NCBI RefSeq assembly: GCF_001677475.2
Contig: NZ_CP015229.1
Source of the DNA: Escherichia coli
GTDB lineage: Bacteria; Pseudomonadota; Gammaproteobacteria; Enterobacterales; Enterobacteriaceae
Strand: one strand, 5' to 3'
DNA: 64,000 bases
Position 1 is the first letter of the stretch. Each line of letters starts with the position of its first letter. Below are positions 3,001 through 41,486 of the stretch, piece by piece. Position numbers and translations under genes: made by a program. The notes below the pieces were generated by a model. That model saw only the letters and a list, made by a program, of their open reading frames with translations, was not told the DNA's origin and searched no databases.

Positions 3001-5598
3001 TGCCAGCGCGGTCGTGGTTTTACCCAGCCCGGTGCCGAAGCCCAGGATGCCGCGCCCATCTTCGGACAGTCGGCGCACCTCGCTATTCTGGTAATCAAAT
3101 GGCTGACGCTTACCGCTTAATCCCTTCAACCCAAGCGGATCGCCAGAGTGTTCATACGGGATATTGCTATTGAACACATCGTTGTATTTGGCAACCAGCT
3201 CATCGTAGCGATCGTGCGTCTTGATCCACTTATTGAACTGGTCCTCAAGCAGTGCCATCTGCTCGCGGTAGCCGTTCGCCGTCGCGCTATCTTTGCCACC
3301 GATACGCGCACCATTGAGATACTTTTCCAGCTGTGCCGGGAACCCGGTCGCGTTTTCACCTGATTTACGGTCCCACTCGTAGCGGATCTCGCCTGTTTCT
3401 TTATCCTTGCGCTGGACGACACCGTATCGGTGCCCGACGAACAGACCATCACCACCGTGATAGGTGTCAGAAACCATTTCGTCGCCTTCCAGCTGCACTG
3501 ACTGCACATAGCGCAGATCCGGATAGCCGTTTTTCTGCAAAAACTCCAGAATGACGGAGCGGTCGAACCAACGGCTATTGAGCTTAAAGCGGATATTCTC
3601 TGCTGGCGTCTTGATGCGCTTCTCTTCGATCGCTGCCAGCTGATTAAGGACGTTGTTCTTTACTGGACCGTCGGGGAGTGTGGCAAGGAATTCCTGTTTT
3701 GGAGCCACTATCTCGTTAATGTCGCCGCTGGTGGCGCGGGCGAACGGAACAATCCCGCCATACGGTGAAACCGCAATACCAGGGGTGCTGGCCAATAAAT
3801 TAAGCAACTCTTCATCACTGGCTGGCAGTTCGCCGGTAAACGCAAGGCGGAAATCATCGAGCTGGATTGGATCGCGGGTAAGATCGCTATAGAGATAACG
3901 CAGGGTGTCCTGATAGCTGGTGGAGTCATAACTGGCGCTGGAATCATGCGTAACCAGCTTTCCTGTCAGCTCGTCAGAAATAGTGCCATCCAGCTTAATT
4001 GCCCCACGGAAAGCAAACCAGGCGCGCGCACCGCTTCCCGATAATTTAGCTATCGGACCGCGACCGGGGTTACCAAAACGGTCAATCTCTGCCTGCAAAC
4101 GGGATACCAGAGAAAGGCGCTTCTGTTCGATTTGTTCAGCACTATGCCCGGCGGCCTTCATATCCTGATATTCAATTAACATCCGGCCAATCATCGCCCC
4201 GCGATACAAGCGTTCACGGTATTTTTCAGGCTGGCTGTTAATCCAGTCCACCAGCTGCACCATATCGTCGCTGATTGATGTGGTGTACTTATCGCGGACA
4301 TTTGCCATCTGGGTAAATGTCATACCGAGACGGCCTTCTGTTGTAGTCAGGTTACGCTGAAGAGCCTCCCAGCTATCCGCGCCATAACTGGCAGCATCAA
4401 TCTTAAGCTCCTTACCAGCATCAGCTTCAATCCAGCGACCACCAGCATATTTTTGCCATACGCCATTAATCAGGCGCATTTCCCCTTCATCAACAACATC
4501 TGCGGTCGGTGACGGTTCAGCCATATCGAGCAAAGACCAGTCGATACGACTTTCGAAACGATGAATCAGCTTCGCTTTAAGAGCCTGGTTATCAATCTGC
4601 CCGTCGGCACGAACCTCAATACGCCCCTGGAAGCCCTTTTCCTGGGTACCATGAACAAACCGGCGGCCATCCTTTTCAAACCACTTGCCAGAAATAAACG
4701 TTGGCCAAAGCACATTTGCCGATTCAAGAGTGCTTTCATCCACCAGGGGGATTTTCTCAGCCATCTCTGCCGGATGTTTGCGCATCAGCACCACATCAAC
4801 GACTGTACTGGTCCCGTTTGCGTCAAAAGTACCGGTAGGCAAGCGGTGGGCACCAAGAAATTCAGCTTTCCGTGATAGGCGCAGGCGTAACCGCTTCATG
4901 TTTGAACCTGAAACAATGGACGGCGGCACAATCACGCACATGAATCCGCCTGGCTTTATCTTGTCCAGCATGCGGAGCATGAAGTAAGAACCCATGTCCG
5001 TTTCTTCTGCGTAAGGCTTATCGATGTTGCGTGTGTTATCACGACCGCCGAACGGAACGTTACCCACAACATGGTCGAATGAATCGTTAGGTGTGCTTAT
5101 AGCCAGCTGTTCGAACGGGGAAATCTGTACGCTGTCTTCCGGGTGTAACAACTGGTTTATACGACCGGAAACACTGCTGATCTCAGTCGCGGTCATCACC
5201 GTACCAACCGGTTTTGTCTCATTAAAAACGCCAGTTCCCGCCGATGGTTCCAGAGTGTTACCTACGTCCGCGCCGTAGAGCTTCATGATCTCCCAGACAC
5301 CTTCAGCGATCGGCTTTGGTGTGTAATATTCGGAGACGGACCCGCCAATGCCGCCTTCACCGGTGTACCCAGCCAGGATCTGGCGCTGTTCATCTGTCAG
5401 TGTCGCGCCGTCCACCAGCGAATTAAGCAAATCTATCGCCTTCTGATTCGCCTCCCGGCGCAGTCGGTCATAGCTTTTGCCTTCCACCTTTTCCACGCCG
5501 TATTTAATCGGCGCTCGGTGAGATGTTATTGCCCTAATGTATTTCAATATTTCGCTGACACTTGAACAGCGAAACACCCCCATAGATAGCTTGTTCAT
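1..5598 (-). CDS. darB: DarB-like antirestriction protein, N-terminal methyltransferase plus helicase domains; partial, C-terminus lies beyond window start
   Basis: Reverse-strand frame opens at ATG 5598 behind an AAGGA RBS and stays open to position 1; it is absent from the ORF track because it has no stop in the window. Translation shows an amino-methyltransferase-like motif (GNVPFG), Walker A (GFGTGLGKTT) and DEGH helicase motif. Position next to portal/protease/lyz/ssb matches P1 order. Confidence 0.75.
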   Translation of the reverse strand, partial: MNKLSMGVFRCSSVSEILKYIRAITSHRAPIKYGVEKVEGKSYDRLRREANQKAIDLLNSLVDGATLTDEQRQILAGYTGEGGIGGSVSEYYTPKPIAEGVWEIMKLYGADVGNTLEPSAGTGVFNETKPVGTVMTATEISSVSGRINQLLHPEDSVQISPFEQLAISTPNDSFDHVVGNVPFGGRDNTRNIDKPYAEETDMGSYFMLRMLDKIKPGGFMCVIVPPSIVSGSNMKRLRLRLSRKAEFLGAHRLPTGTFDANGTSTVVDVVLMRKHPAEMAEKIPLVDESTLESANVLWPTFISGKWFEKDGRRFVHGTQEKGFQGRIEVRADGQIDNQALKAKLIHRFESRIDWSLLDMAEPSPTADVVDEGEMRLINGVWQKYAGGRWIEADAGKELKIDAASYGADSWEALQRNLTTTEGRLGMTFTQMANVRDKYTTSISDDMVQLVDWINSQPEKYRERLYRGAMIGRMLIEYQDMKAAGHSAEQIEQKRLSLVSRLQAEIDRFGNPGRGPIAKLSGSGARAWFAFRGAIKLDGTISDELTGKLVTHDSSASYDSTSYQDTLRYLYSDLTRDPIQLDDFRLAFTGELPASDEELLNLLASTPGIAVSPYGGIVPFARATSGDINEIVAPKQEFLATLPDGPVKNNVLNQLAAIEEKRIKTPAENIRFKLNSRWFDRSVILEFLQKNGYPDLRYVQSVQLEGDEMVSDTYHGGDGLFVGHRYGVVQRKDKETGEIRYEWDRKSGENATGFPAQLEKYLNGARIGGKDSATANGYREQMALLEDQFNKWIKTHDRYDELVAKYNDVFNSNIPYEHSGDPLGLKGLSGKRQPFDYQNSEVRRLSEDGRGILGFGTGLGKTTTALALEAFNYENGRSTRTAYVVPKSVLENWYYEAKEFLSEEAFSNYLFVGLDVLMDGDQIRQVPVLDENGKPVLGADGTPVMRDALKLADEATITARMNAIPHSNYRAVVFTKEQYARIPLRDDTVDEHAQDMLYDFVAAGRVASAMDSDSHRKEAARRRVLSEYSDTGTEKAEKYPYFEDMGFDSVIADEGHNYRNSYKNGREASQLAYLPTSAVAQSARDMAIKNAYLMKKNGGRGPVLLTATPVVNTPIDAYNMLSHVLPKEYWQKMGIYGPDDFVKFFGKTRLETVQKISGEVEEKMALVGFENLDALRGIFHRWVTLKTAEDVKDTVEIPELDEHQQDAPLTEEQLAAYEELRQQAEAAAKANNGVTTSVNEDGVIEHEKARPIFSIIRDMDRVCTDMDLYYRRITYRFLPEYADAVQQLADSLPKQATSEDDDSDDSITQQSQYSLIDKGEFIQLQVPEAFEQEVNKRLAKFGIDEQTVTHPVTPKYAKLIATLKEFFPEGKQIIFTDEKTQHQKLKRIICNALNLEPSKVGILNAQTVAEAGKTGQKLKAVKPPKELPDEPTDAQIAKYNEQMALYDAYIAQQNEMSLGGLEKIAADFQEGWTPIIICNKKAEVGINLHRGTTDIHHLTLPWTPASIAQRNGRGARVGSNRASVRVHYYCGKGSFDEYRLKTLKRKAGWISDILRSDKSEMENADANDMIEMQMYTAKDDGERLAMMQVQMDKAKAAQRARQKEQATIDLQNYIKAQHAAGEDVEVLTAELERSKAEFEKSTDEVAKFKQAVMAKAADNADWKARWGSVHHTDRMLLAQYRASLKSAIQRKANISQAISRYEKLLNRTQKAATDIKRLRPLVEDAINKGILDVDPDLVNHANEFLVIGDRSWRVGQYYDCAGDIVRIKSLDFDSQRADVEIIFTFKGTKSGNWDVKTLDKQVDVTPDEDAVMQKISGGVSIAGINDIISCDDFYRFQQRGMIKITDSYGVQTTESGYSIDFVGTYTN

Positions 5599-8439: not shown

Positions 8440-8694
8440 TTATCTCCTTCGCCTGCGTGCCATATATTTGCGCACCGCGCGGCGTGGACAATCTGAAGCA
8501 GTTTCTTTCTGCTGCATCAATCTCGCAGCCATGCTCAAAAATGTCAGGCACAGCCGAAGCCCGGCATACAATAGCGGTTCCAGTGGCCACGTCTCATTGA
8601 GCACATATACCGCCATGAAAATCGAGTCAAAAACTATCGCCGCCAGCGATAACTTCATTGTCGAAAGTCGGCGGAGCTGCCGGAGTTTATTCAT
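8440..8694 (-). CDS. hypothetical small membrane protein with Arg-rich C-terminal tail, downstream of lyz
   Basis: Track ORF with hydrophobic stretches; ends just before the terminator; could be spurious. Confidence 0.3.
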   Translation of the reverse strand: MNKLRQLRRLSTMKLSLAAIVFDSIFMAVYVLNETWPLEPLLYAGLRLCLTFLSMAARLMQQKETASDCPRRAVRKYMARRRRR

Positions 8695-9244
8695 TGACCA
8701 GTCCCGTCAGGCAAAGCTGGCGTTCTTTTTCACGGCGAATCTTTAAACCTCGCAGGGGCACGCCGTTACTGTTCACGAAATCAGGGAGATGGTTACACAT
8801 ATTCACCCATTCCCCTTTCTGCGCCCACTTGTGGATGGACGTTTCAACTCGCATGCCTCGCGCTTTGCTGTAGTAGGTCCGTAAGCTATTGCATCCCATA
8901 TTGAATGCCGCGCTTGTCATTGCACTGAAGGCATTATCGGGCATGTCTTTGCCCCGGAAGTGCTGATTAATACAGCGTTCAGCGATCAGGATATTCTTTT
9001 CCCAATCAGCGGCGATTTGCTGGTCTGTTTTTCGCACACCCGGCGTTACCCCGTGTGTATTACCGATCCCGTCAGTCCATACCCCCGCCGGGCACATGTA
9101 TGGATCACGTCGGCAACCTTCAGCGTTTCCGATAAGCTCAAGCCCCGCCTGGTTGGTTCGCACATTGCCATTACCCATCACGATGGTAATCATCACCGCG
9201 ATAGCGCAAATTGCACCGCCTCCTGCGGCTGTTTTTCCCTTCAT
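8687..9244 (-). CDS. lyz: SAR endolysin (T4-lysozyme-like muramidase with N-terminal signal-anchor-release segment), 185 aa
   Basis: Track ORF trimmed to internal ATG behind a GAGG RBS; N-terminal Gly/Ala-rich hydrophobic SAR segment (AAGGGAICAIAVMITIVMG) followed by catalytic Glu/Asp/Thr motifs (GNAEGC, RRDPY, WTDGIGNT); length equals P1 Lyz. Confidence 0.85.
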   Translation of the reverse strand: MKGKTAAGGGAICAIAVMITIVMGNGNVRTNQAGLELIGNAEGCRRDPYMCPAGVWTDGIGNTHGVTPGVRKTDQQIAADWEKNILIAERCINQHFRGKDMPDNAFSAMTSAAFNMGCNSLRTYYSKARGMRVETSIHKWAQKGEWVNMCNHLPDFVNSNGVPLRGLKIRREKERQLCLTGLVNE

Positions 9245-9377
9245 AAAGACCTCATAAGCGAATTTTTTACGCTCCAGGACAAACACCCATTCACAGCCAA
9301 TACCGACTGACTCGATCCCTTTAGAAGGTACAGGATAATGCAAATCACTTGTTAGCTACGTTTCAAAGATATACATT

Positions 9378-9394
9378 ATTGCTCTAATTAATTT
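9378..9394 (+). promoter_or_regulatory. P1 C1-repressor operator-like site upstream of ssb
   Basis: ATTGCTCTAATTAATTT matches the recalled C1 operator consensus ATTGCTCTAATAAATTT at 16 of 17 positions. Confidence 0.5.
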
Positions 9395-9413
9395 ATTTTA
9401 TTAGGTAAGATAA

Positions 9414-10046
9414 GTGGCACAACGCGGTGTAAACAAAGTCATCCTGATTGGTACCCTGGGGCAAGACCCGGAGATCAGGTATATACCAAATGGCGGCGCG
9501 GTCGGAAGACTCAGCATCGCAACGAATGAATCATGGCGCGACAAGCAAACGGACCAACAGAAAGAGCAAACAGAATGGCATAAAGTCGTTTTGTTCGGAA
9601 AACTTGCTGAAATTGCGAGTGAGTATTTACGAAAAGGTTCTCAGGTCTACATCGAAGGGAAACTTAAAACCCGTAAGTGGACAGATGACGCCGGTGTAGA
9701 ACGTTACACGACGGAAATTATCGTCAGCCAGGGCGGCACCATGCAAATGATCGGCGCTCGCCGTGACGATTCACAGTCCTCAAATGGCTGGGGGCAATCA
9801 AACCAACCTCAAAACCACCAGCAATACAGTGGTGGCGGTAAACCTCAGAGCAACGCCAATAACGAACCTCCAATGGACTTTGACGACGATATTCAAAAAC
9901 GACTGAAAGAAAAGCGGTGGTCCAGACGCCGACAAAAGCACGAACTCGCTAAAAAACGCCAAAGCTGGCAATGGCACGCGCTTTTCACGAAAAGAACACC
10001 CCGAGGCATTGCTTTCGCTGGTGGGAAAACATTCCTCCCCACCTGA
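9414..10046 (+). CDS. ssb: single-stranded DNA-binding protein with non-canonical C-terminus (basic 50-aa extension after DFDDDI instead of terminal PF)
   Basis: Track ORF; OB-fold region closely resembles E. coli/P1 SSB (VNKVILIG...TEWH...MDFDDDI); reading continues [14 protein letters not shown]... to a stop at 10046. Confidence 0.85.
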
Positions 10047-10083
10047 AGGCGCAATACATCAAATTTTAAGCAGAGAAAAGACT

Positions 10084-10737
10084 ATGAATAAAATGGCAAC
10101 GAAAGAGCTTTTTAAGTTCCTTCCCAAATACAAAGCTCACAAAATCGTTAGTGCATCGAAAATCAAAGATATCGAGATTATCTCATTGATTGATAATACC
10201 CCTGCTTGTGGCTATATCACATTAATGGACCCCCAAGGCGTAACGGTTCGTGTTGATGCAGCGTTTTTGCAAAAACACCGACCAGATACTGGCGGCTATC
10301 TGCTCGGTTATGAGGACGGTTATCTGTCCTATTCACCAGAAAAAACATTTGAAGAAGGCTTTAGTCGGACTAACGACTTCTTCGAAAATGAGGTATCGCT
10401 TAGCATTGAAGGTCACAATGGGGTGACATTCATTACAGCCAGGGACGTAACTATTGCTGCCGGTGGCATCATTACCACACAAGAAGAAATCGACCTTGAA
10501 GCAGCCGACTTCTCTGACGCGCTAATGTGGTTGAAGGAAGGCAAGAAAGTTGCCCGACGCGAGTGGAAAGGCGAAAAGCAATTCTGCTGGTTAGTTCTCG
10601 CTGGAAGCGTCAATTTACACGGCATTCACGTTCCTTATGGTGACCATTTTGTATTGAAAGATGCACAAAATATGGACAGCGTTTGGTTGCCGTCTGTGGA
10701 TGATTTACTGGCATGTGACTGGTTTGTAGTGGAGTGA
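10084..10737 (+). CDS. two-domain protein: unknown N-terminal domain plus C-terminal DUF2829-like (Tad2-family-like) domain
   Basis: Track ORF 10009-10737 trimmed to the ATG in frame; C-terminal motif ALMWLKEGKKVARREWKG ... DWFVVE resembles DUF2829. Confidence 0.55.
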   Translation: MNKMATKELFKFLPKYKAHKIVSASKIKDIEIISLIDNTPACGYITLMDPQGVTVRVDAAFLQKHRPDTGGYLLGYEDGYLSYSPEKTFEEGFSRTNDFFENEVSLSIEGHNGVTFITARDVTIAAGGIITTQEEIDLEAADFSDALMWLKEGKKVARREWKGEKQFCWLVLAGSVNLHGIHVPYGDHFVLKDAQNMDSVWLPSVDDLLACDWFVVE

Positions 10738-10743
10738 TTTAAC

Positions 10744-11526
10744 GTGGAAAATACTAAAGCAATTCAATACCGCCTGCGTAATGGTCAGAGTGTCGAAGTG
10801 ACCATCAATAATGATGGTGTGCCTGGCGAAAAGGTTTCGATCTCTGATCTGGCTATCGAAAAAACCATCATGTGCCACCTTGGCTTTACTGAAGAAGTGA
10901 GCAAAAAGCATGGTGTAGCAATCTGGAGCGCAATGGATACTGGTATGCGCAGATTCATTACTGCTCGTACCCCAGGGATGACCATGATGGACCTCATGCA
11001 GATTGCGCCGCTGTTTGAATGTGAGCCTTTAGATGTATTCAGCAATCCAGCTATCTGCCAGCAGTTATATGGTGAGATGAAACTCGCGGTTACCCCCATT
11101 GTGCTGCATGAAGGATCGCTTGCTGGCGTGTGGAAAGTGGAGCGTATTTCAAGCTACATGCCTTTCCATGTCAACGGCGTAATCACTGGTGAAAATCAAC
11201 CTGTTTCCGTTATAAAGTCAGACCTCAAGCGCGCAATTCTTGAAGCAAGTTGTCGAGTTGTCGGCCTGGGCAAACAGTCTTATGTTTCCTTCCCGGCTGG
11301 CCCTGAAGGCCCGGCAGAAATTCTGATTATGGATGCCGATCTGCTATGGCAAATACAGTTTCTGATTGGCAAAAGCATCATCCGCGCTGAAGAACTCGAT
11401 CAGTACATTACCTGCACGATGACGGATGAAGTCAAAAGTGTGGCTATAGCCAATGCCCGGAACCTATGTCGTGCTGCATTAACAGAACTGCAAGAAAACA
11501 CCACGGAAGAGGTGGAAAGTGATTAA
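10744..11526 (+). CDS. hypothetical protein, 260 aa
   Basis: Track ORF; GTG start behind a GGAG RBS; tightly packed with neighbours. Confidence 0.5.
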   Translation: MENTKAIQYRLRNGQSVEVTINNDGVPGEKVSISDLAIEKTIMCHLGFTEEVSKKHGVAIWSAMDTGMRRFITARTPGMTMMDLMQIAPLFECEPLDVFSNPAICQQLYGEMKLAVTPIVLHEGSLAGVWKVERISSYMPFHVNGVITGENQPVSVIKSDLKRAILEASCRVVGLGKQSYVSFPAGPEGPAEILIMDADLLWQIQFLIGKSIIRAEELDQYITCTMTDEVKSVAIANARNLCRAALTELQENTTEEVESD

Positions 11527-12613
11527 TCGTATACAGAATGAATCTGCCTGGTTAGCACTGATAGAACGGTATAAAGACAATTGGGAACTGGCAGCAAAAG
11601 AGTTGCTTGATATTGAGTTAACACCTCATCAAGCAAAAATTATTAACGCGATAAAGAACACCGGAGCCAAAGTCACTGCCACCACACCACATGGTATTGG
11701 GGAAACCTCTATTGTGGCAGTGATTAGCATCCTGCAAACAATACTGTATTCGTGTTCCCGTACAGTGGTTGTTTCTCCTGCGATTAACGATAGTCGAAAA
11801 ACAATAATTGACTATATGTTCCGTTATTGGGAGCGAGTTACCCAAAAACACCCTTTTCTTGGCAATTATTTCAGAATACACCCTGACAAAGGGTTGGTGC
11901 ATATCAGTGAAACATGGGGATGCGTCTATATAACCTATTGTCTGAATAACGAAGAGTCTCTGGCTGGTTTTACTGGACCGCACGATCTTTTCATCGTTAT
12001 TAACTCGGCGGAAATCAGCGATCGCGCTCATGCAGTGATAACTGGCAATTTAACCAATTATGACTCGCGCCTGCTGTTGCTGTCGAAACCATCGGAACGC
12101 GAGAAAGGGTACTTTTATGATTCGCATCACCGGTTGGCCCATAGTAAAAACAATCCTGCTGGTTTTTTCACGGCGATAACTCTAAACACAGAGGATTCAC
12201 CTCTCGTTTCTGAAGCATATCTTGAATTCAAAGCCAAAGAGTTTGGTGGACGCAATAGCGATGAATATCGCCGATTGATCTTGGGGAAATTCCCCGGGAT
12301 TCGGGAGTTGATGGAAAAGTCATCTGTTCCCCGTAATATGCACTTCACAATGACTGACGGTAGTAAATGGGTAGTGCCTACGATCGTGATCGCCAAACAC
12401 CATGCGAAACATCACGCTCAAAAACACAACTCCAGCACATTAGACTGGCTGAAGGCCTATACAATACCGTTATTCTCGGCAAACCATAACGCTATAACTG
12501 AATGGGCTAAACAAATCCCCTGGCAGGATGTGGCTGAAGAGGCGTTTGTCGAAAAACCACCAAGAGATTTGCACGAGCACTGTTGGCTGACATCAGAAAA
12601 AAGCTTCTCGTGA
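11519..12613 (+). CDS. hypothetical protein with terminase-large-subunit-ATPase-like region and non-canonical P-loop (GIGETS)
   Basis: Track ORF; local pattern LTPHQ ... TTPHGIGETS ... DLFIVINSAE ... ITGN parallels the Q-motif/Walker A/Walker B/motif III spacing of large terminases, but the Walker A lysine is replaced by Glu. Confidence 0.45.
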   Translation: MINRIQNESAWLALIERYKDNWELAAKELLDIELTPHQAKIINAIKNTGAKVTATTPHGIGETSIVAVISILQTILYSCSRTVVVSPAINDSRKTIIDYMFRYWERVTQKHPFLGNYFRIHPDKGLVHISETWGCVYITYCLNNEESLAGFTGPHDLFIVINSAEISDRAHAVITGNLTNYDSRLLLLSKPSEREKGYFYDSHHRLAHSKNNPAGFFTAITLNTEDSPLVSEAYLEFKAKEFGGRNSDEYRRLILGKFPGIRELMEKSSVPRNMHFTMTDGSKWVVPTIVIAKHHAKHHAQKHNSSTLDWLKAYTIPLFSANHNAITEWAKQIPWQDVAEEAFVEKPPRDLHEHCWLTSEKSFS

Positions 12614-12616
12614 GGT

Positions 12617-12643
12617 AAAAATCCCGCCGATTGGCGGGATTTC
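12617..12643. terminator. bidirectional intrinsic terminator between the accessory module and the dar operon end
   Basis: Hairpin ATCCCGCC-GATT-GGCGGGAT with flanking A and T runs. Confidence 0.6.
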
Positions 12644-12644
12644 T

Positions 12645-12953
12645 TCAATATACGATCTGGTCTACATGATCACCAAAATCATCGTCGTCGTCCTCATCGC
12701 CACCATCTACTGCTGGCCAATCAACAAACCAGCCAGCGTAAAGATGCAGCGTTCGGAGAACATCACTTGCGGGAGCATCAAGGGTGTTAACGAATCCCAT
12801 ATAGCTATTGGGATTTGCTCCAGCTATGGCTTCAGCGATCATGTCCTCGGTAATGTCACCGGAGATAATGCTTAAACGCCCGGAAACTTCTTCATTATCA
12901 TCAAATTCGATAATGGCATCTCCACCTAATGGCGCTGCGATTTTAATCTGCAT
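12645..12953 (-). CDS. small highly acidic protein (C-terminal DGGDEDDDDDFGDHVDQIVY), last gene of the dar operon
   Basis: Track ORF; overlaps the ddrB-like stop by 11 nt; function unknown. Confidence 0.5.
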   Translation of the reverse strand: MQIKIAAPLGGDAIIEFDDNEEVSGRLSIISGDITEDMIAEAIAGANPNSYMGFVNTLDAPASDVLRTLHLYAGWFVDWPAVDGGDEDDDDDFGDHVDQIVY

Positions 12954-13724
12954 TATTTAGCTCCTTTGCCACACCTAATAACAGTTCCAGCAATCCGTCA
13001 CCATTCATCAGTGATGCGGCAGCGGCCTCTTTGTCATGATACAACTGAAGAGCCATAGAGAATACTTCCGTTGCTGACGTTTTGGAAATAGTCGGTGATT
13101 TCTGCCGAATTTTCCCGGTGTTACTTACTGAGGCTGGCGGGTATACCTTCGCCATATAAATATTACTCAATCGAGATCTGAAGCACCATTCAGGCTTGCC
13201 ACGCCCACCGATATTGACGAAAGATGGCTTATCCCCTTCAACATTGGCCTTCAGGAATGACCGGGCTTTCTCTAACAAACCAGGGTTACTGTACTCAAGA
13301 TGATGACCCAGCTCGTGCCACAGTGCACTTGCATTTTCATCGTTCAAATTGACAGCAACAACACCATTTAGATTTGCATATGCCCTTCCCTGGTGGTGAA
13401 CTACCTTTGATAAGGTCGATATTTTCCCGCCGGTCAGGCGATAAATATCAGCAAGTTCCTTGCGCAGGTCTATCCCACCATTCTGTCCAGCGCGGGCTTC
13501 TTCCACTTCTTCTGTGATAAAAGAGTCGGCCCACTCAAGAGCTTTTTCTTCAGATACGGATGAGTTTGCGATCGCACTGTTCATGGCAGATAACACTTTC
13601 TCGTGGACCGAACCCATACTTCGCTGATTCATTTGCCAGCGTGTCTGCGGGTTATATGAGAATCGCTTAAGTAGTTGGTCAAGCTGCTCAAGTTCTTCTT
13701 CACTGACATACTTTTTAGCCTCAC
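12943..13724 (-). pseudogene. ddrB: 3' fragment of IS-interrupted ddrB-like gene (carries HELGHH zincin-like motif)
   Basis: Reading across the IS target duplication rejoins this frame to the upstream fragment (...PGIIGE|AKKYVSEEELEQL...). Confidence 0.6.
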
Positions 13725-13789
13725 TATTAGACGTCAACTAGTTTTGCCGACTCGCGCCAACTATACTGGCCGCACCCTTCAGGGCGACA

Positions 13790-14545
13790 TCAAGTCGCGC
13801 TTGTTACTGCCTTCGCTGTCTTTTTCCTGTAGCTTTCCCCTTTCAGTTCGAACATATATCCGTGATGGATCAGCCTGTCTGCCGCAGCCACCGCCATAGT
13901 CTCATCCACGAAGATGCTGCCCCACATGCTGAACGGATGGTTACTGGTTATCACCAGGCTCCCACGTTCATAGCGATGCGCTATTAACTCGAACAGCACA
14001 CCCGTTTCGGCACTATCGCGTTTGACATAGCCAAGATCATCCACCACTATCACCCGGTAGCGATCCAGTTTCAGTAGCAGCTCATTCAGTTTCAACTGAG
14101 CTCTGGCTTTACGTAGTTCCTGCAACAGCTCTCCTGCGCTGTAGAACCGGGCCCGGTAGCCCTGACCTACTACGCCATCCACGATCGCTGCCGCCAGATG
14201 GCTTTTCCCCAACCCGCTGGCTCCGAACAGCAGAACGTTTTCTCCTGCATCAACCCAGTCTGTCGTTTCACAGAGTTGCCGGAACTGAGCTCCATTCAGT
14301 TCCGGCACCTGACTGAAGTCGTATTCGCTCAGCGTTTTGGCAACTGGCAACCGGGCCTCCTTTTTATAACGACGCAGTTTTTCACTCTCGCGCCACAGGA
14401 GTTCTTCATTGCATAGCGTCAGAAGATAGCGCGATGGTGTCCAGCCTTCTGCCAGCGCTCGTTTTTCCAGAGCGTGCCATTCAGCTCCAACTCGTGTCAG
14501 GCGTAGTTTACGCAGGCTATGTTCAAGGTGATGGATATTGCTCAC
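13790..14545 (-). CDS. istB: IS21-family helper ATPase IstB
   Basis: Walker A GASGLGKSH, Walker B VIVVDDLGY, ITSNHPFSMW motif typical of IstB/DnaC-like AAA+ proteins. Confidence 0.9.
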   Translation of the reverse strand: MSNIHHLEHSLRKLRLTRVGAEWHALEKRALAEGWTPSRYLLTLCNEELLWRESEKLRRYKKEARLPVAKTLSEYDFSQVPELNGAQFRQLCETTDWVDAGENVLLFGASGLGKSHLAAAIVDGVVGQGYRARFYSAGELLQELRKARAQLKLNELLLKLDRYRVIVVDDLGYVKRDSAETGVLFELIAHRYERGSLVITSNHPFSMWGSIFVDETMAVAAADRLIHHGYMFELKGESYRKKTAKAVTSAT

Positions 14546-16041
14546 TGCGAACCTCCCTTGCCACGCAGTAGTTGCTCATAACTGCTCAGGTTATGCTGTA
14601 TCACATTGACTACCGGCAACGCCTTTTCTTTTATACCCAGGAAGCGCATCAGCCGGTGCAGATCCACGTTTCCCGGGGTATTCAGCATCTGCTCCATACC
14701 TTTTGCCACGACTGAGATATCGTCGTATCCTGCAGCCAGTTTCAGGGCATGTACCATCAGCCTTCCTGCCATATCGGGCTCCAGATGATTACATAAGCGA
14801 CGCCACAGCCTCCGCCATTCATCGTCCGGCAGGATGTCATTTCTCAGCGTTGCATGGCAGAACGCACCGGGCTTTTTTGCCAGACTGTCGATCACATGTC
14901 GGAAGTCGATACGACGGGCCCGCGTCTTCCCTTTTTCTGGTCTGACGCGAGGGCAGCTCATGACCTCGCTGCTGCCAACGTAACAGCTCAGACGATCGTC
15001 CCATAACCTGACCCGTAACAGTTGACCTACAAGCCGGGAAGGTACGCTGTAGACGACGTGCTTCACATTGATGGTACTGCTGCGACTAACCCTCACAGTC
15101 AGCTCATCATAGTCAGCACTGCGACGAAGCGGCAGCGGTTTCAGATGAAGACGTTCTTCCTTGACCAGATCCTGATTGTTACGGTTGTGCCGCATAACCT
15201 GCTGAGTGATGAAGGCCTGATATTCTTCTATGGTGCTGAAGTCGTTACTGCCCCGCAGTATCAGCGCCTGACAGATACGCCTTTTCAGATGTCCGTGGGC
15301 ACTTTCAACCGAGCCATTTTCGTGGCCCCGACCGGCATTATTGTGTACGCCCTGCATTCCGTAGTGCTGACAGAGAGTAGCATAACGCTCAGTCAGCTCG
15401 CGGCGTCCATCTTCGCCCTGTTGTTTCCATGCTGCCCTCAGGCTGTCCGTTTTATGTTCTACCGGCACTCCGCCCAGTTGTCCGAGGGCTTCCTGCAGGC
15501 CTTCAGCCAGAGCAGAGAAGCTCTCACCACCCAGAACAACCCGCATCCAGCTCCAGTGGCTCCATTCCAGACGGAAGTGATACAACTTATGCGCCAACAA
15601 CTTACCGGCGATGGTGACAACTACACCTTTCAGTTCAGTAAAGTCCGACAGGCCTCGCAGGCCGGGCTGATGTTGCTGGCGGAACATGACCTCCTGCTCT
15701 GTACCATACTGTAGTTTCCATTCGCGAACCCGCCGTTGCATTGTTCTTCGAAGGCTGTTGGGGTACTGGCCGGGATATTTATCCTGTAGCATCTCCAGTA
15801 GAGTTGTTGGTGTCAGAGCCGGCCTCTCTTTCAACAGAGGAACAAGCATGCTGTCCCACACAGCTTCCAGAGGATCTTTGCGTGTGCGCCAGTGCCGAAC
15901 ACTGTTTTTTGCCCACTCTCCTTTTTCGATCCGACGACCAGAACGGACTGAGATACCAGCCTTCATGGCCGAGATATGCTGAGTTATACCTTTCTTACGC
16001 TGAGTCATATAGTAACTGACCTGAGAAGTATTGAGCGTCAC
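14542..16041 (-). CDS. istA: IS21-family transposase IstA (true start may be an internal ATG)
   Basis: N-terminal HTH pattern like IS21 IstA, overlaps istB start in the typical istA-istB arrangement. Confidence 0.8.
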   Translation of the reverse strand: MTLNTSQVSYYMTQRKKGITQHISAMKAGISVRSGRRIEKGEWAKNSVRHWRTRKDPLEAVWDSMLVPLLKERPALTPTTLLEMLQDKYPGQYPNSLRRTMQRRVREWKLQYGTEQEVMFRQQHQPGLRGLSDFTELKGVVVTIAGKLLAHKLYHFRLEWSHWSWMRVVLGGESFSALAEGLQEALGQLGGVPVEHKTDSLRAAWKQQGEDGRRELTERYATLCQHYGMQGVHNNAGRGHENGSVESAHGHLKRRICQALILRGSNDFSTIEEYQAFITQQVMRHNRNNQDLVKEERLHLKPLPLRRSADYDELTVRVSRSSTINVKHVVYSVPSRLVGQLLRVRLWDDRLSCYVGSSEVMSCPRVRPEKGKTRARRIDFRHVIDSLAKKPGAFCHATLRNDILPDDEWRRLWRRLCNHLEPDMAGRLMVHALKLAAGYDDISVVAKGMEQMLNTPGNVDLHRLMRFLGIKEKALPVVNVIQHNLSSYEQLLRGKGGSQ

Positions 16042-16129
16042 GCCATTTCCTGTTGGATCATGTAAATGACACTCAGGTTACAAAACCGGCCAGAATAATC
16101 GGCGCCAGGCGGACTGAGTTATTGTCGTC

Positions 16130-18346
16130 TCATACCTCACCAATAATGCCAGGGAGAATATTGCCGTTAGGATTAAACGCTCGCGAAAGGAAGAGTTTCA
16201 GCGCCCCCATGCCCTCCGATGCTTCAATATCACCAATAACCCGGTTAACAATGGCCGCACTCTTCGGATTAGCATCCGCCAACGCTCTGGCTACAATTTG
16301 CAGGGACGATACGACCTCACGCTGCATATCCGTCCTGATCTCATCAATAAACTCTGGCGTTATGCCGTGCTCTTTAAGAATATCCCTGCCTTCCGCCGTT
16401 ACCCCATCGATATCACCGACATGTTTATTAACCCGACTTTGCAATGCCTTAAATGCCTTCAGAATTCCACGGGAATCATCCGCTTTACTAACGGCCTTCC
16501 TGAATGCTGGCAAGAAGTCTGAGTTAACCTCATTTTGTTGATCGGCCCACTGAATGGAGGCTTCTTTCATCTCGTCCAGAGTCAGATCACCCAACGCGGT
16601 ATGGTCTGTGAATATGAGCGACAACCTCTGAACCATTTCTGCCAATGGTGATGCCGAATGCGCCGCGCTAAGGAATGCTTTCACCCTGGTTGGGCGAATG
16701 GAAAACCAGTCAATAGCTGGTGGCATATCTCCGTTTTGTATCGCCTGCGCTATCTCATCAAAGCCGTCGCGCCCAAGGGAGGATGCGTGATTTAACAATC
16801 CGCGAAGTAACGAATTGCTGATACCGAATAATCGGCACCATTTATTCACGTCGGCAACAGGCATTCGAACAAAATGCGCAAGCACTTGTACAAGCTGTTC
16901 ATCCTGGGGATCTGTACGGGAAAGCAGCCTGATCAGATGAATAATGTCTTTGATGCCGGATGCCCGATGTAATAGCAAGCTGGTATATGGAGCAACACCG
17001 TTGTAACTACCGCCGGAAACGGACTCGAAAAGACCGCCGGATATCCCTTGCATGCCTTCGTTTTCCAGTTCCTGAGACACCTGGCGAAGGATATCCTGTA
17101 ACGACACATCGCCGCCGCCAAACATATCCCCCAGCGCCTGGCCCTGGTGCTGTAACTCATCATTGATACGTTGAGCCATCAACTTAAAGGCGGTGGCCAT
17201 ACGCTTCGCGCTACGGTTATTCGCGACGATGAACAACGCGAGTGCTTTCACTTCCGGGGCCGTTTCGCTGAACATATCCCCCTGAGCAATAACATCGGTA
17301 ATATGCTGGCCTGACTCCTTCGATTGCCTTACCAGGTCTACCGCATCTTTCAATGCCGCCAGCGCCTTTTTATCGAGGCTATCCGCTGTCTCAATGCCAT
17401 CAACAATAGTTGTCACAGCCTGCTTGTGCGCTTCTCCTGATAAAGCCTGCATCTGGACAAAATCATTGGCTGCCGCATTAAGCGCCGTCAGAACATTACG
17501 CATATCCGGATCAGGTTCTTCTGCAACCATCCTTACCAGGCGCGCATCCTTATATGCCTTGGCAAAGATCGCGTTTTGTATACGGTCAACAAGTTGCCGC
17601 GTTGGTCGCCCATCTTCCGTTACAAGGCCAGCAGCCTGTGTGGCACCAACTTGCGTCATGAATCCGCGAATAAACGCGTCATTACTGCGGCTAAGCAGAT
17701 CTCCGCTTTCTGACGGATTAAACAGCGCCATCATCGCCGGTGTTATGCTGTCGGCATCAACAAAAGCCTTTTCACTGGCTGCCATTTCCTGAAGATCAGA
17801 AATATTTGAGTCCTTGGCAAACTGAACGCGGTCAACCTTAGTTAACCGGCGGCGCACCAATACAGGAGCCGTCATTGATTCAACCTTTTCAGGTCGTATG
17901 CCGAATTCGGTCGCATGTTCAATCAGGTACTCACGATACCGATCCGCATTGCCGTCCTGATAGGCTTTAATGATTCCCATGGTCCGTCCATTACCTGACT
18001 CAACGGCATTGTCCTCACCAATTATCGGCGCGCCATGGCTGGATAAACCGGAATCGGTAAGCTGAGCAGGCCGCAAATCTTTGGATATCTGGTTAACCTG
18101 AAGAAGGCTGGATGCGCGGGTCCGGTCGCGCGGCTGAAGTTCCTGGGGATAGTCAGGATTAATTTTCCCATCCAGAGTATTGGATACCAAAAGAGCTGAG
18201 GCATCGACGATATCAAACGCTGTTTTTACCTCGTCTCCCTTCGCTGTCACCACATACGAAACCCGCCCATAATCGGGCAGGTTCTTAAGCAGCTCGATCA
18301 GCGTTTCTATGCTGGTGGCAATTACCACCTGATCGCTTAAGCTCAT
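16130..18346 (-). pseudogene. ddrB: 5' fragment of IS-interrupted ddrB-like gene; 738-codon ORF ending with an IS-encoded Val-stop
   Basis: ORF runs from the dar operon into the IS terminus and stops 2 codons inside; position after darA-ddrA matches P1. Confidence 0.6.
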
Positions 18347-36865: not shown

Positions 36866-37310
<445 letters not shown>

Positions 37311-38107: not shown

Positions 38108-38359
38108 ATGAGACAAAGAGAAGATCGCGACCGCGATTGGCCTTCGCTAAAGATTCAGCTGGCGCTCAAAGATAATGGGTGGTCTTCCTTCCGGGAGCTT
38201 TCACTCCATGCTGGTTATGCTCAGGATTCACTGAAAGCGGTAGTTCGTACACCGAACAAAAAATACGAACGCGTAATTTCTGACGCTATAGGTGTACCGC
38301 CAGAAATCATCTGGCCCAGCCGGTATCGTAACGATGGATTTATCAGGAAGGCGTCGTGA
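38108..38359 (+). CDS. ner: Ner-like DNA-binding protein
   Basis: Pattern DW...L...SL.ALS...GY...L......P...E.II...L...PE.IWPSRY matches Mu Ner/Nlp. Confidence 0.8.
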   Translation: MRQREDRDRDWPSLKIQLALKDNGWSSFRELSLHAGYAQDSLKAVVRTPNKKYERVISDAIGVPPEIIWPSRYRNDGFIRKAS

Positions 38360-38360
38360 T

Positions 38361-40457
38361 ATGCAGTTGTACGTTACCGCAAACGACTTGCTCGGCGTAC
38401 CAGGAATGCCAGTCACTGCAAAAGGTATCCGTCAGGCGTTACAGCGTTTTGCCCATGGGCGCAATGACGTTAGCCGCCGACGTGAAGGCACAAAAGCCAT
38501 TGAATACCACATCGATTGCCTGCCAGAGGTAACTCAAAGGGCACTGCGTGAACGCTATGTGGAACAGCTGGTGGCTACAGAGAACAATGTTTCTGAAGTG
38601 AAGGTTGTTACCAGGAAGGCTCGTAATCCTGATGCAGTCCAGGCAATCGAAGCATATCGCGGTTCTCCACAACTGATGGAAGAACGCCTGAACGCGTTGA
38701 CCGAAAACCAGCGCCGGGTATCTGAAGCAAGATCTGCGCTGGTGGTGGAAGTGCTGAGGCTGGAAAGAGACGGTGATCTCGGGCGACTGAAAGCCATTAA
38801 CTTTCTTGTCGAAAAAGCCCGTAAAGGTGAACTACCGGAACGCCTGCAACAGGCCGCAGTTAACGCCAATGCAAAACGTGGTGCTAATCGCACCATCAGT
38901 CGTGACCCACTTTATCAGTGGGTGCTGAAGTACAACCAGTCACAGAACGCCGCAGAACGGCTGCTGTTACTGGCACCAGGAAAACGCGACGAAATAAAAC
39001 CGGAGGAAATTAGCTGGCTACCTGAATTTCTGGCGCAGTATCGCCAGGCGAATGGCAGACCTATGTCAGAAGCCTACGAAGATTTTGTCGCGGAATGGCA
39101 GCGTCGCCATGCAGACGAACCCTACATGATAGAGGTGATGCCCTCTTACGATGTGGTTCGTTATGCCATGAAGAAATTGCCGGAAGTGGTGAAACAAAAA
39201 GGCCGTGTTACCGGCAGTGAATACCGTCAGCTTGAAGGATTCACCCGCCGCGACTGGACAGCTATGCCGGTGAATTATGTCTGGATTGGTGACGGTCACG
39301 GTATGAAGCTGAAATGTGCGCATCCGATCCACGGGCGTCCATTCTCACCAGAAGTCACGTTTGTGATCGACGGTGGAACCCGGTTTGTTGTTGGCTGGAG
39401 TCTTGATCTTGCCGAGAACGTTTTCGCCGTTGCCGGAGCGATACAGCACGGCATTCGCAACCACGGAAAACCGTTCCTGTATTACTCGGATAACGGTTCT
39501 GGTGAAACGGCTGACATGCTTGACAAAGAGGTCGTGGGTATTCTGCCCCGCCTGGGGATTAAACACCCAACAGGTATTGCCGGTAATCCACAGGGGCGCG
39601 GCATTATTGAACGCCTGAACCGGACACTGCCGATGCGTATAGCCAGGAGGTATCGCACCTATTTTGGCAAGGGTGCTGACCGGGAATCGTTGCGTGTACT
39701 TAACCGTGATCTGCGTTCAGCGTTTAACGCCCTGCAACAGGACAAGCCTCTGAACGACCGCCAGAAAGCTGCAATGCGCGAGCTACCATCGTGGGCGGAG
39801 CTTATTGAGGCTATTCGTGAAGGCGTGGAATGGTACAACAACCGCCCGCATTCTGAGCTGCCTATGAAACCGAACGGGCGGCATTACAGCCCGGCAGAGT
39901 TCAGAAAAAAACGCCTGGCAGAAGAAGACACCGAAATTGAGTGGCTGAGTGATCTTGAGCTGCGCGACATGTTCCGCCCGATGGTGGAGCGTCCGGTAAA
40001 ACGCTGTGAAATCAAATGGCTTGGCAATATTTATTACGCGCCGGAGCTGCGTGACGAACACGGTCGCAAAGTGCTTATCAGTTATGACATTCATGACGCC
40101 GAGCGAATTACGGTACGTCGCAAGGACGGCAGCTTTATCTGTGAGGCGATATGGAACGGCAATAAACGCGCAGCCTTCCCTGTCAGTGCGGAATATCACA
40201 AACAACAGCAGCGTATTAAAGGGATGCGCAAACGCGCTGAGGAAAAAATTCGCGATGCTGAAGATGAAGGTATTCAGATTCTGGAACACAAACAGGCTGA
40301 ACCCTGGCTGGATAATGTTTATCGCCCGGTTGGTAATGTGGTGGCCGTTCAGCAACCGGAATATGAAGAAGAGCATGACGAAGAATTTGAACGCGATTTC
40401 AGACTGGGGATGCAAAAACTTTTTGCCATGCAGGAAGAAGATGATCCGCTGGCCTGA
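38361..40457 (+). CDS. Mu-type DDE transposase A
   Basis: Track ORF 38292-40457 trimmed to the ATG; N-terminus parallels Mu A (PG.P.T..G......KGGKAIEY); about 700 aa. Confidence 0.85.
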   Translation: MQLYVTANDLLGVPGMPVTAKGIRQALQRFAHGRNDVSRRREGTKAIEYHIDCLPEVTQRALRERYVEQLVATENNVSEVKVVTRKARNPDAVQAIEAYRGSPQLMEERLNALTENQRRVSEARSALVVEVLRLERDGDLGRLKAINFLVEKARKGELPERLQQAAVNANAKRGANRTISRDPLYQWVLKYNQSQNAAERLLLLAPGKRDEIKPEEISWLPEFLAQYRQANGRPMSEAYEDFVAEWQRRHADEPYMIEVMPSYDVVRYAMKKLPEVVKQKGRVTGSEYRQLEGFTRRDWTAMPVNYVWIGDGHGMKLKCAHPIHGRPFSPEVTFVIDGGTRFVVGWSLDLAENVFAVAGAIQHGIRNHGKPFLYYSDNGSGETADMLDKEVVGILPRLGIKHPTGIAGNPQGRGIIERLNRTLPMRIARRYRTYFGKGADRESLRVLNRDLRSAFNALQQDKPLNDRQKAAMRELPSWAELIEAIREGVEWYNNRPHSELPMKPNGRHYSPAEFRKKRLAEEDTEIEWLSDLELRDMFRPMVERPVKRCEIKWLGNIYYAPELRDEHGRKVLISYDIHDAERITVRRKDGSFICEAIWNGNKRAAFPVSAEYHKQQQRIKGMRKRAEEKIRDAEDEGIQILEHKQAEPWLDNVYRPVGNVVAVQQPEYEEEHDEEFERDFRLGMQKLFAMQEEDDPLA

Positions 40458-40532: not shown

Positions 40533-41486
40533 ATGACTGATATTGATGATGTTTTCAACACTATTAATACGTTGATCAACGAGGGCGACAAGCCCCAGGA
40601 AGATATTGCTGATGAGGCCGGAATGTCTCCGGCAACACTCTCGGCTCTGCGTAAAGGAGAATACAAAGGCAATGTCGAAGGTATGCATGACAAATTACAG
40701 GAATGGTATCGGGTCTGGCAAAAAGGGCAGAATTTGTCAGGTGCCCCCGGCGTTGTGAAGACCCAGACATTTTGTGATTTGCATGAGCTGTTTAAAACAG
40801 TGCGCTCACTCGGGATTATCAGTGTTGTTGTTGGCGTACCGGGTGTCGGCAAAACTTTTGCTGCACGGGAATATTGCCGCAAGACAGCTAATGCCTGGAT
40901 GGTGACGCTTGCACCGGCACATTCGAGCGTAACGGAATGCCTCCTTGAAATAGCATATGCGCTGGAAATTAATAATCCGGGAAGAAATAAGGGGAATATA
41001 ACCCGCGCCATTCGCAGAAAACTGGGCGGTGGTAAAGAAACCAGTGGCCGTGTTAACCCCCTGCTGATTATTGATGAAGCTGATCACTTAAGTGTGGATG
41101 GTCTGGAGCAATTACGCGCCATTCAGGATGCTACTGGCGTGGGGATGGTTTTAATTGGCAACCCGAAACAGATGGCGGATGCCACCCGTCGTGGGACTGA
41201 TGAACTGGCTCGTTTGTTCAGCCGTTTTGCCATGACAAAACAACTGCGCAAAGTGAAAAAGACTGATGTGATGGCTGTAGCCAAAGCATGGGGAGTAACA
41301 CAGGAAGATGAGCTGGATCTGCTGATGAGGGTTGCCGAAAAGCCCGGGGGATTGCGTGTATTAACTCACACACTGAATCATGCGTGGCTGGCGGCGAAAG
41401 GTGCTGGTTCATCCCTGAATAAAAGTCACATAAAAGCGGCTTTTAAGGAGGCTTACAGCAACCCTAAGTTGCTGAACTGGCAGTAA
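40533..41486 (+). CDS. Mu B-type AAA+ target-DNA activator
   Basis: Walker A GVPGVGKT, Walker B LLIIDEADHL; directly after transposase. Confidence 0.85.
   Translation: MTDIDDVFNTINTLINEGDKPQEDIADEAGMSPATLSALRKGEYKGNVEGMHDKLQEWYRVWQKGQNLSGAPGVVKTQTFCDLHELFKTVRSLGIISVVVGVPGVGKTFAAREYCRKTANAWMVTLAPAHSSVTECLLEIAYALEINNPGRNKGNITRAIRRKLGGGKETSGRVNPLLIIDEADHLSVDGLEQLRAIQDATGVGMVLIGNPKQMADATRRGTDELARLFSRFAMTKQLRKVKKTDVMAVAKAWGVTQEDELDLLMRVAEKPGGLRVLTHTLNHAWLAAKGAGSSLNKSHIKAAFKEAYSNPKLLNWQ

Follow-up and report, generated by a model that had tools for sequence, protein, structure and literature searches.

Organization of the ssb locus

The DNA analysed here, referred to as the window, is a 64-kb (64,000-nucleotide) stretch of an Escherichia coli contig whose P1-like part corresponds to P1 coordinates ~11.6-46.3 kb. 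In this part lyz and ssb are arranged divergently, and a 17-bp operator-like site lies between them, matching the arrangement annotated in P1 and P7 (Table 1). Transfer of the P1 annotation placed a sigma-70 promoter immediately upstream of the site, which starts at the base directly after the -10 hexamer and spans about -6 to +11. With 8 of 12 hexamer positions matching the sigma-70 consensus the promoter is weak by consensus, and it was not listed by a generic promoter scan because this score falls below the scan threshold. On the other side, the -22 box of the late promoter of lyz adjoins the ssb -35.

Table 1. Features of the ssb control region, the genes behind ssb and the insertions elsewhere in the element (positions in the window)
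Feature	Position	Strand	Description
lyz	8687-9244	-	Phage lysozyme, divergent from ssb; Pfam PF00959, homology to P1 lyz
LPlyz	9332-9350	-	Lpa-dependent late promoter for lyz; P1/P7 annotation transferred, sequence conserved
ssb promoter (P1 Pr21 = P2ssb)	9349-9377	+	Sigma-70 promoter, transferred from P1 annotation (offset 5600); sequence identical to P1
Pr21/P2ssb -35	9349-9354	+	TTGTTA; P1 annotation
Pr21/P2ssb -10	9372-9377	+	TACATT, after 17-nt spacer; P1 annotation
C1 operator	9378-9394	+	Very likely ortholog of P1 Op21 = Ossb, monovalent; 100% identity to annotated P1/P7 operator
ssb RBS	9398-9406	+	Annotated in AF125376.2, identical in the window; AGG at 9403-9405, 8 nt before GTG 9414
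ssb	9414-10046	+	210-aa ORF; residues 1-160 99% identical to P1 Ssb
Tad2-like gene	10084-10737	+	217 aa, first gene after ssb; C-terminal Tad2-like domain (DUF2829), Pfam PF11195
isaA-like gene	10744-11526	+	phrog_2326; annotated isaA in SJ46
364-aa ORF	11519-12613	+	phrog_5902; last gene of presumed ssb operon
hxr-like gene	12645-12953	-	Converges on the 364-aa ORF (gene order)
IstB	13790-14545	-	251 aa; IS21-family element
IstA	14542-16041	-	499 aa; IS21-family element
MuA-like transposase	38292-40457		Mu-like prophage
MuB-like protein	40533-41486		Mu-like prophage

Three genes follow ssb on the same strand. The product of the first matched PF11195 with an E-value of 3.7e-18 (66.3 bits; gathering cutoff 25) and the Tad2 chains of the Protein Data Bank with E-values of ~1e-10 for 9EIB and 8V3E and 5e-6 for 8SME, making the 217-aa protein a candidate anti-Thoeris sponge. 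Tad2 has been described in 56% of P1-group and 93% of D6-group phage-plasmids (bioRxiv 10.1101/2025.09.12.675607). A PADLOC scan of the three proteins encoded downstream of ssb returned zero matches. The 364-aa ORF shows weak similarity to a terminase large-subunit ATPase (phrog_2, E=3.6e-9) and looks like the intact form of a gene that is split by IS1 in P1, where its parts are the end of isaA, and isaB.

Disruptions of ssb and of the surrounding element

The ssb coding sequence carries an in-frame 15-bp deletion (junction 9894/9895), which eliminates the stop codon and the two codons before it (Pro-Phe, the end of the DDDIPF tip) and yields a 210-aa SSB with a basic 50-residue fused tail. 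Partner proteins of E. coli SSB dock at its acidic tip, which ends in Ile-Pro-Phe; since the end of this tip is deleted, the SSB encoded in the window is probably crippled, or else the deletion is an assembly error. In the best 12 of 425 PLSDB records and the best 6 of 426 records drawn from 5,426 complete E. coli genomes, the deletion junction aligned in two pieces. Since a record with the same deletion would be expected at the top of the ranking, the deletion appears, on these top-ranked matches, to be unique to this copy; three GTDB-representative contigs, retrieved by an exact scan for the -10 plus the operator, do not contain the junction at all. The ORF that starts 30 nt after ssb in P1 (the N-terminus of isaA) and in SJ46 (J46_0048) is broken in the window by a TAA at 9950-9952 and also by a 1-bp deletion near 10037. 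As this upstream ORF of the P1/SJ46 type is broken here, the Tad2-like gene most likely starts at ATG 10084.

Two insertions lie further along the element. An IS21-family element (~13724-16135) interrupts ddrB and splits it into 12943-13737 and 16130-18346. Homology to P1 stops at 37152 inside pmgC, and a Mu-like transposable prophage occupies 37153 to the window end (64000). The kil-gam region of this prophage is 84-86% identical to D108 and SfMu, and three ATTCAAGATAA/G repeats lie at its end. A query for the canonical Mu left end had no match in the window, and the inserted phage has different ends; complete E. coli genomes do not contain the junction between pmgC and the Mu-like prophage (37152/37153). 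Because of the IS21-family insertion, the Mu-like prophage and the truncated ssb tip, the element may be a decaying prophage.

Identity of the 17-mer upstream of ssb

Positions 9378-9394 of the plus strand read ATTGCTCTAATTAATTT, an asymmetric 17-mer that matches the P1 C1 operator consensus ATTGCTCTAATAAATTT (quoted in PMC8546580) at 16 of 17 positions, the sole mismatch being A to T at position 12. The same consensus is also the majority sequence of the annotated P1 operators extracted from the GenBank annotation. The preliminary description had placed a C1-operator-like site at these coordinates with this number of matches, and both were exact on recount. Across both strands of the whole window this is the only site with one mismatch or fewer.

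Comparison with the annotated P1 operators, proposed earlier as a check, revealed that the 17-mer is identical to Op21/Ossb of P1 (AF125376.2, 5683-5699; AF234172, 21015-21031) and to Op(ssb) of P7 (AF503408, 24773-24789); all three records annotate a C1 binding site there, and the GenBank wording for Op21/Ossb is "monovalent C1-controlled operator". The surroundings are equally close to P1. A megablast search with 8600-10900 retrieved Punavirus genomes at 94-98% identity, among them P1, P7, SJ46 and RCS47, and between lyz and ssb the sequence agrees with P1 and P7 at ~99% of positions (alignment of 9300-9440; 140-240 bp around the site). The region is covered by 499 plasmid records in PLSDB, all of them at least 95% identical, beyond which only the ssb coding sequence matches, at ~70%. 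Eight of nine aligned P1-like elements, which are 99% identical to one another, carry the identical 17-mer, with two changes in phage Ro157c2; as P1-like elements are so uniform (~99%), this conservation of the operator adds no independent weight. Taken together, we are highly confident that 9378-9394 represents Op21/Ossb in a plasmid-prophage of the P1 type (Punavirus), with C1 control and downstream read-through predicted for the window. Judged by its sequence, the site is no new member or variant of the set but the operator already known from P1, in a close relative of that phage; Op21/Ossb has figured for decades in GenBank annotation and in work on P1. In annotation terms, the site identifies the window as part of a P1-family plasmid-prophage and ssb as an early, repressor-controlled gene.

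A consensus scan of both strands of the 64-kb window for further C1 operators found only one other candidate, at 5528-5544 on the plus strand (ATTGCCCTAATGTATTT, three mismatches), and the lack of others is explained by the end of the P1-like part at 37152, where the Mu-like prophage is inserted. This second 17-mer is antisense to darB, lying within its first few codons ~110 bp downstream of PdarB, and is identical in P1, where no operator is annotated. It may be a chance match, with ~0.1 sites of this kind expected in each window (dinucleotide shuffles of the 64-kb window gave a mean of 0.11 sites with three mismatches or fewer).

Predicted control of ssb by C1

In P1, C1 represses the lytic genes via 22 dispersed operators per genome; it is inactivated by Coi and by the Ant1/2 complex, and Lxc strengthens its binding (PMC8546580). 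Ronayne et al. (PMC4713147) followed transcripts by rt-qPCR in a P1 c1.100 lysogen after heat inactivation of C1.100 and count ssb among the genes under C1 control, strongly induced by this inactivation; ref rose 73-fold, yet less than ssb, dmt and kilA, and with a slightly later peak. Induction of ssb on inactivation of C1 has thus already been measured for P1, and there is little new in it here.

In P1, where the identical sequence is annotated in GenBank as an identified C1 binding site, the C1 repressor binds the asymmetric 17-mer. Because the operator covers about -6 to +11 of the ssb promoter, bound C1 blocks RNA polymerase at Pr21/P2ssb, leaving ssb silent in the P1 lysogen, and inactivation of C1 (by Coi, by the Ant1/2 antirepressor or, for c1.100, by heat) allows ssb to be transcribed as an early gene. 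The same control would operate in this window provided that the element encodes C1 outside it. Since promoter, operator and RBS match P1 base for base, P1-like control of ssb by C1 is expected here, and repression of ssb by C1 in this copy, an extrapolation by identity with P1, is the best-supported expectation. The proposal in the preliminary description that ssb is off in the prophage and on at induction therefore holds by homology, given the identical P1 control region and the rt-qPCR data.

C1 may nevertheless not be the sole input. Reporter assays by Lehnherr et al. in 1999 reportedly found P1 ssb to be transcribed mainly in stationary phase, so the activity of the ssb promoter may be set by C1 plus other input.

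Alternative readings of the site

Could the site be a chance match in an AT-rich intergenic region that binds no repressor? The region is indeed AT-rich, and the generic promoter scan flagged no promoter at the operator; however, from base composition only 3e-4 sites with one mismatch or fewer are expected by chance per 64-kb window, and the 17-mer with its flanking bases is the same in P1, where the site is on record as an identified C1 binding site. A chance origin is therefore refuted in practice, and we attach almost no probability to it. A different objection accepts the Op21 sequence and supposes that the C1 circuit has gone, with c1 lost or inactive, the site unoccupied and ssb either constitutive or otherwise silent. 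A tblastn search with P1 C1 and Coi found neither c1 nor coi in the 64-kb window, and the element bears three lesions that would suit such decay, namely the IS21-family insertion in ddrB, the Mu-like prophage in pmgC and the 15-bp deletion destroying the C-terminal tip of SSB. Absence of c1 from the window is nevertheless expected because c1 of P1, at 93.2-94.1 kb, falls outside the P1 coordinates covered, and neither promoter nor operator is damaged or differs from P1. Moreover, a P1 plasmid-prophage without C1 that still had kilA and repL would not be stably maintained, which also counts against an unoccupied relic. We consider loss of the circuit improbable, and a functional Op21/Ossb remains our preferred reading, with regulation in this particular copy an extrapolation because c1 is not in the window and the element is disrupted in several places.

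The reach of this control beyond ssb is less firmly set. The preliminary description had proposed that read-through from ssb brings the genes behind it under the same switch; the transcript from Pr21 would then continue through the Tad2-like, isaA-like and 364-aa genes. The alternative is that these genes have one or more promoters of their own and that Op21 controls ssb only. It draws on the ~180 nt that separate the position of the normal ssb stop from the ATG of the Tad2-like gene, on a single promoter-like site within the Tad2-like gene (10614-10641, 9 of 12), and on phage D6, where the DUF2829 and isaA pair lies elsewhere, with no C1-consensus site within 3.5 kb of the pair and no C1-type operator found upstream of the DUF2829 gene; from this D6 arrangement the pair appears to be a movable cassette that is not intrinsically tied to Op21. 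Against separate promoters, scans detected no promoter-like site in the gap between ssb and the Tad2-like gene (9900-10084) and no terminator-like site on the plus strand in 9400-12650, and the P1 annotation likewise has neither a promoter nor a terminator between ssb and isaA. The RNA of the ssb-Tad2 gap folds no better than shuffled sequences (z = -0.87); the following gene junctions are tight, with a 6-nt gap between the Tad2-like and isaA-like genes and an 8-nt overlap between the latter and the 364-aa ORF; and in P1 and SJ46 the annotated ORF that begins 30 nt past the ssb stop runs into the next gene. Published RNA-seq data for P1vir (PMC8201110, Table S1) also bear on the question. In the order of wild type at 10 and 30 min and dksA at 10 and 30 min, logFC values were 7.53, 11.66, 6.03 and 10.35 for ssb and 7.37, 11.92, 6.22 and 10.97 for isaA, so that isaA closely parallels ssb in all four conditions, early and late; isaB reached 6.39 at 10 min, whereas the flanking late genes were lower in the wild type at 10 min (4.2-5.0 for prt, pro, lydD, hxr and ddrB; 6.05 for lyz). 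This co-variation fits one early transcript and is compatible with it, though no proof of a single transcript. On balance, we find co-transcription of ssb with the Tad2-like, isaA-like and 364-aa genes plausible and fairly likely, and separate promoters for the downstream genes rather unlikely.

Implications of the proposed read-through

If co-transcription holds, the candidate anti-Thoeris function would join the C1-controlled early regulon via read-through from ssb. A more specific proposal can be made for this P1-like sub-lineage, on which we are evenly divided: the Tad2-domain fusion would have no promoter of its own and would depend for its expression entirely on read-through from the ssb promoter under C1/Op21 control, while in this copy the 15-bp deletion would produce a tip-less SSB fusion whose translation spans the ssb-Tad2 gap. 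If true, the prophage immunity switch would include an anti-defence gene among its immediate-early functions. The slot behind ssb holds variable cargo, with the Tad2-like gene here, IS1 in P1 and nmpC in P7, and the prediction that follows, an only mildly novel angle, is that whatever occupies this slot inherits C1 control.

Comparison with known systems

The other P1 C1 operators (Oc1a-e, also named Op99a-e, and those of ref, kilA/repL, dmt, ban and lpa) resemble the site in the window in their asymmetric 17-bp recognition sequence, in using the same repressor and in overlapping promoters of early lytic genes. Some of them are bivalent, as in Oc1ab, and they lie 1-5 or more positions off the consensus; none of them occurs in the window, where P1-like sequence runs only to P1 ~46.3 kb.

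Among the downstream genes, the Tad2 domain (DUF2829; PDB 8SME, 8V3E, 9EIB) is matched by the C-terminal 80 residues of the 217-aa protein, which carries an extra N-terminal domain of ~135 aa, whereas characterised Tad2 proteins comprise ~90 aa. Phage D6 has the DUF2829 and isaA pair at a different locus, after cre and dut.

The closest counterparts are the ssb control regions of P7 and P1. The operator of P7 Op(ssb), annotated as monovalent, C1-controlled and controlling ssb, is identical to that in the window; the leader and RBS region of ssb shows two substitutions in P7, whose cargo after ssb also differs (nmpC). Relative to P1, the window differs downstream, where its ssb lacks the last two codons and is followed by the Tad2-like gene that P1 does not have, and by two substitutions at 9329-9330, upstream of the promoter. 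The control region itself is without differences: compared with Op21/Ossb and Pr21/P2ssb of P1 (M25412, AF125376.2, AF234172), the 17-mer, the -35, the -10, the RBS, the position between lyz and ssb and the orientation are all identical.
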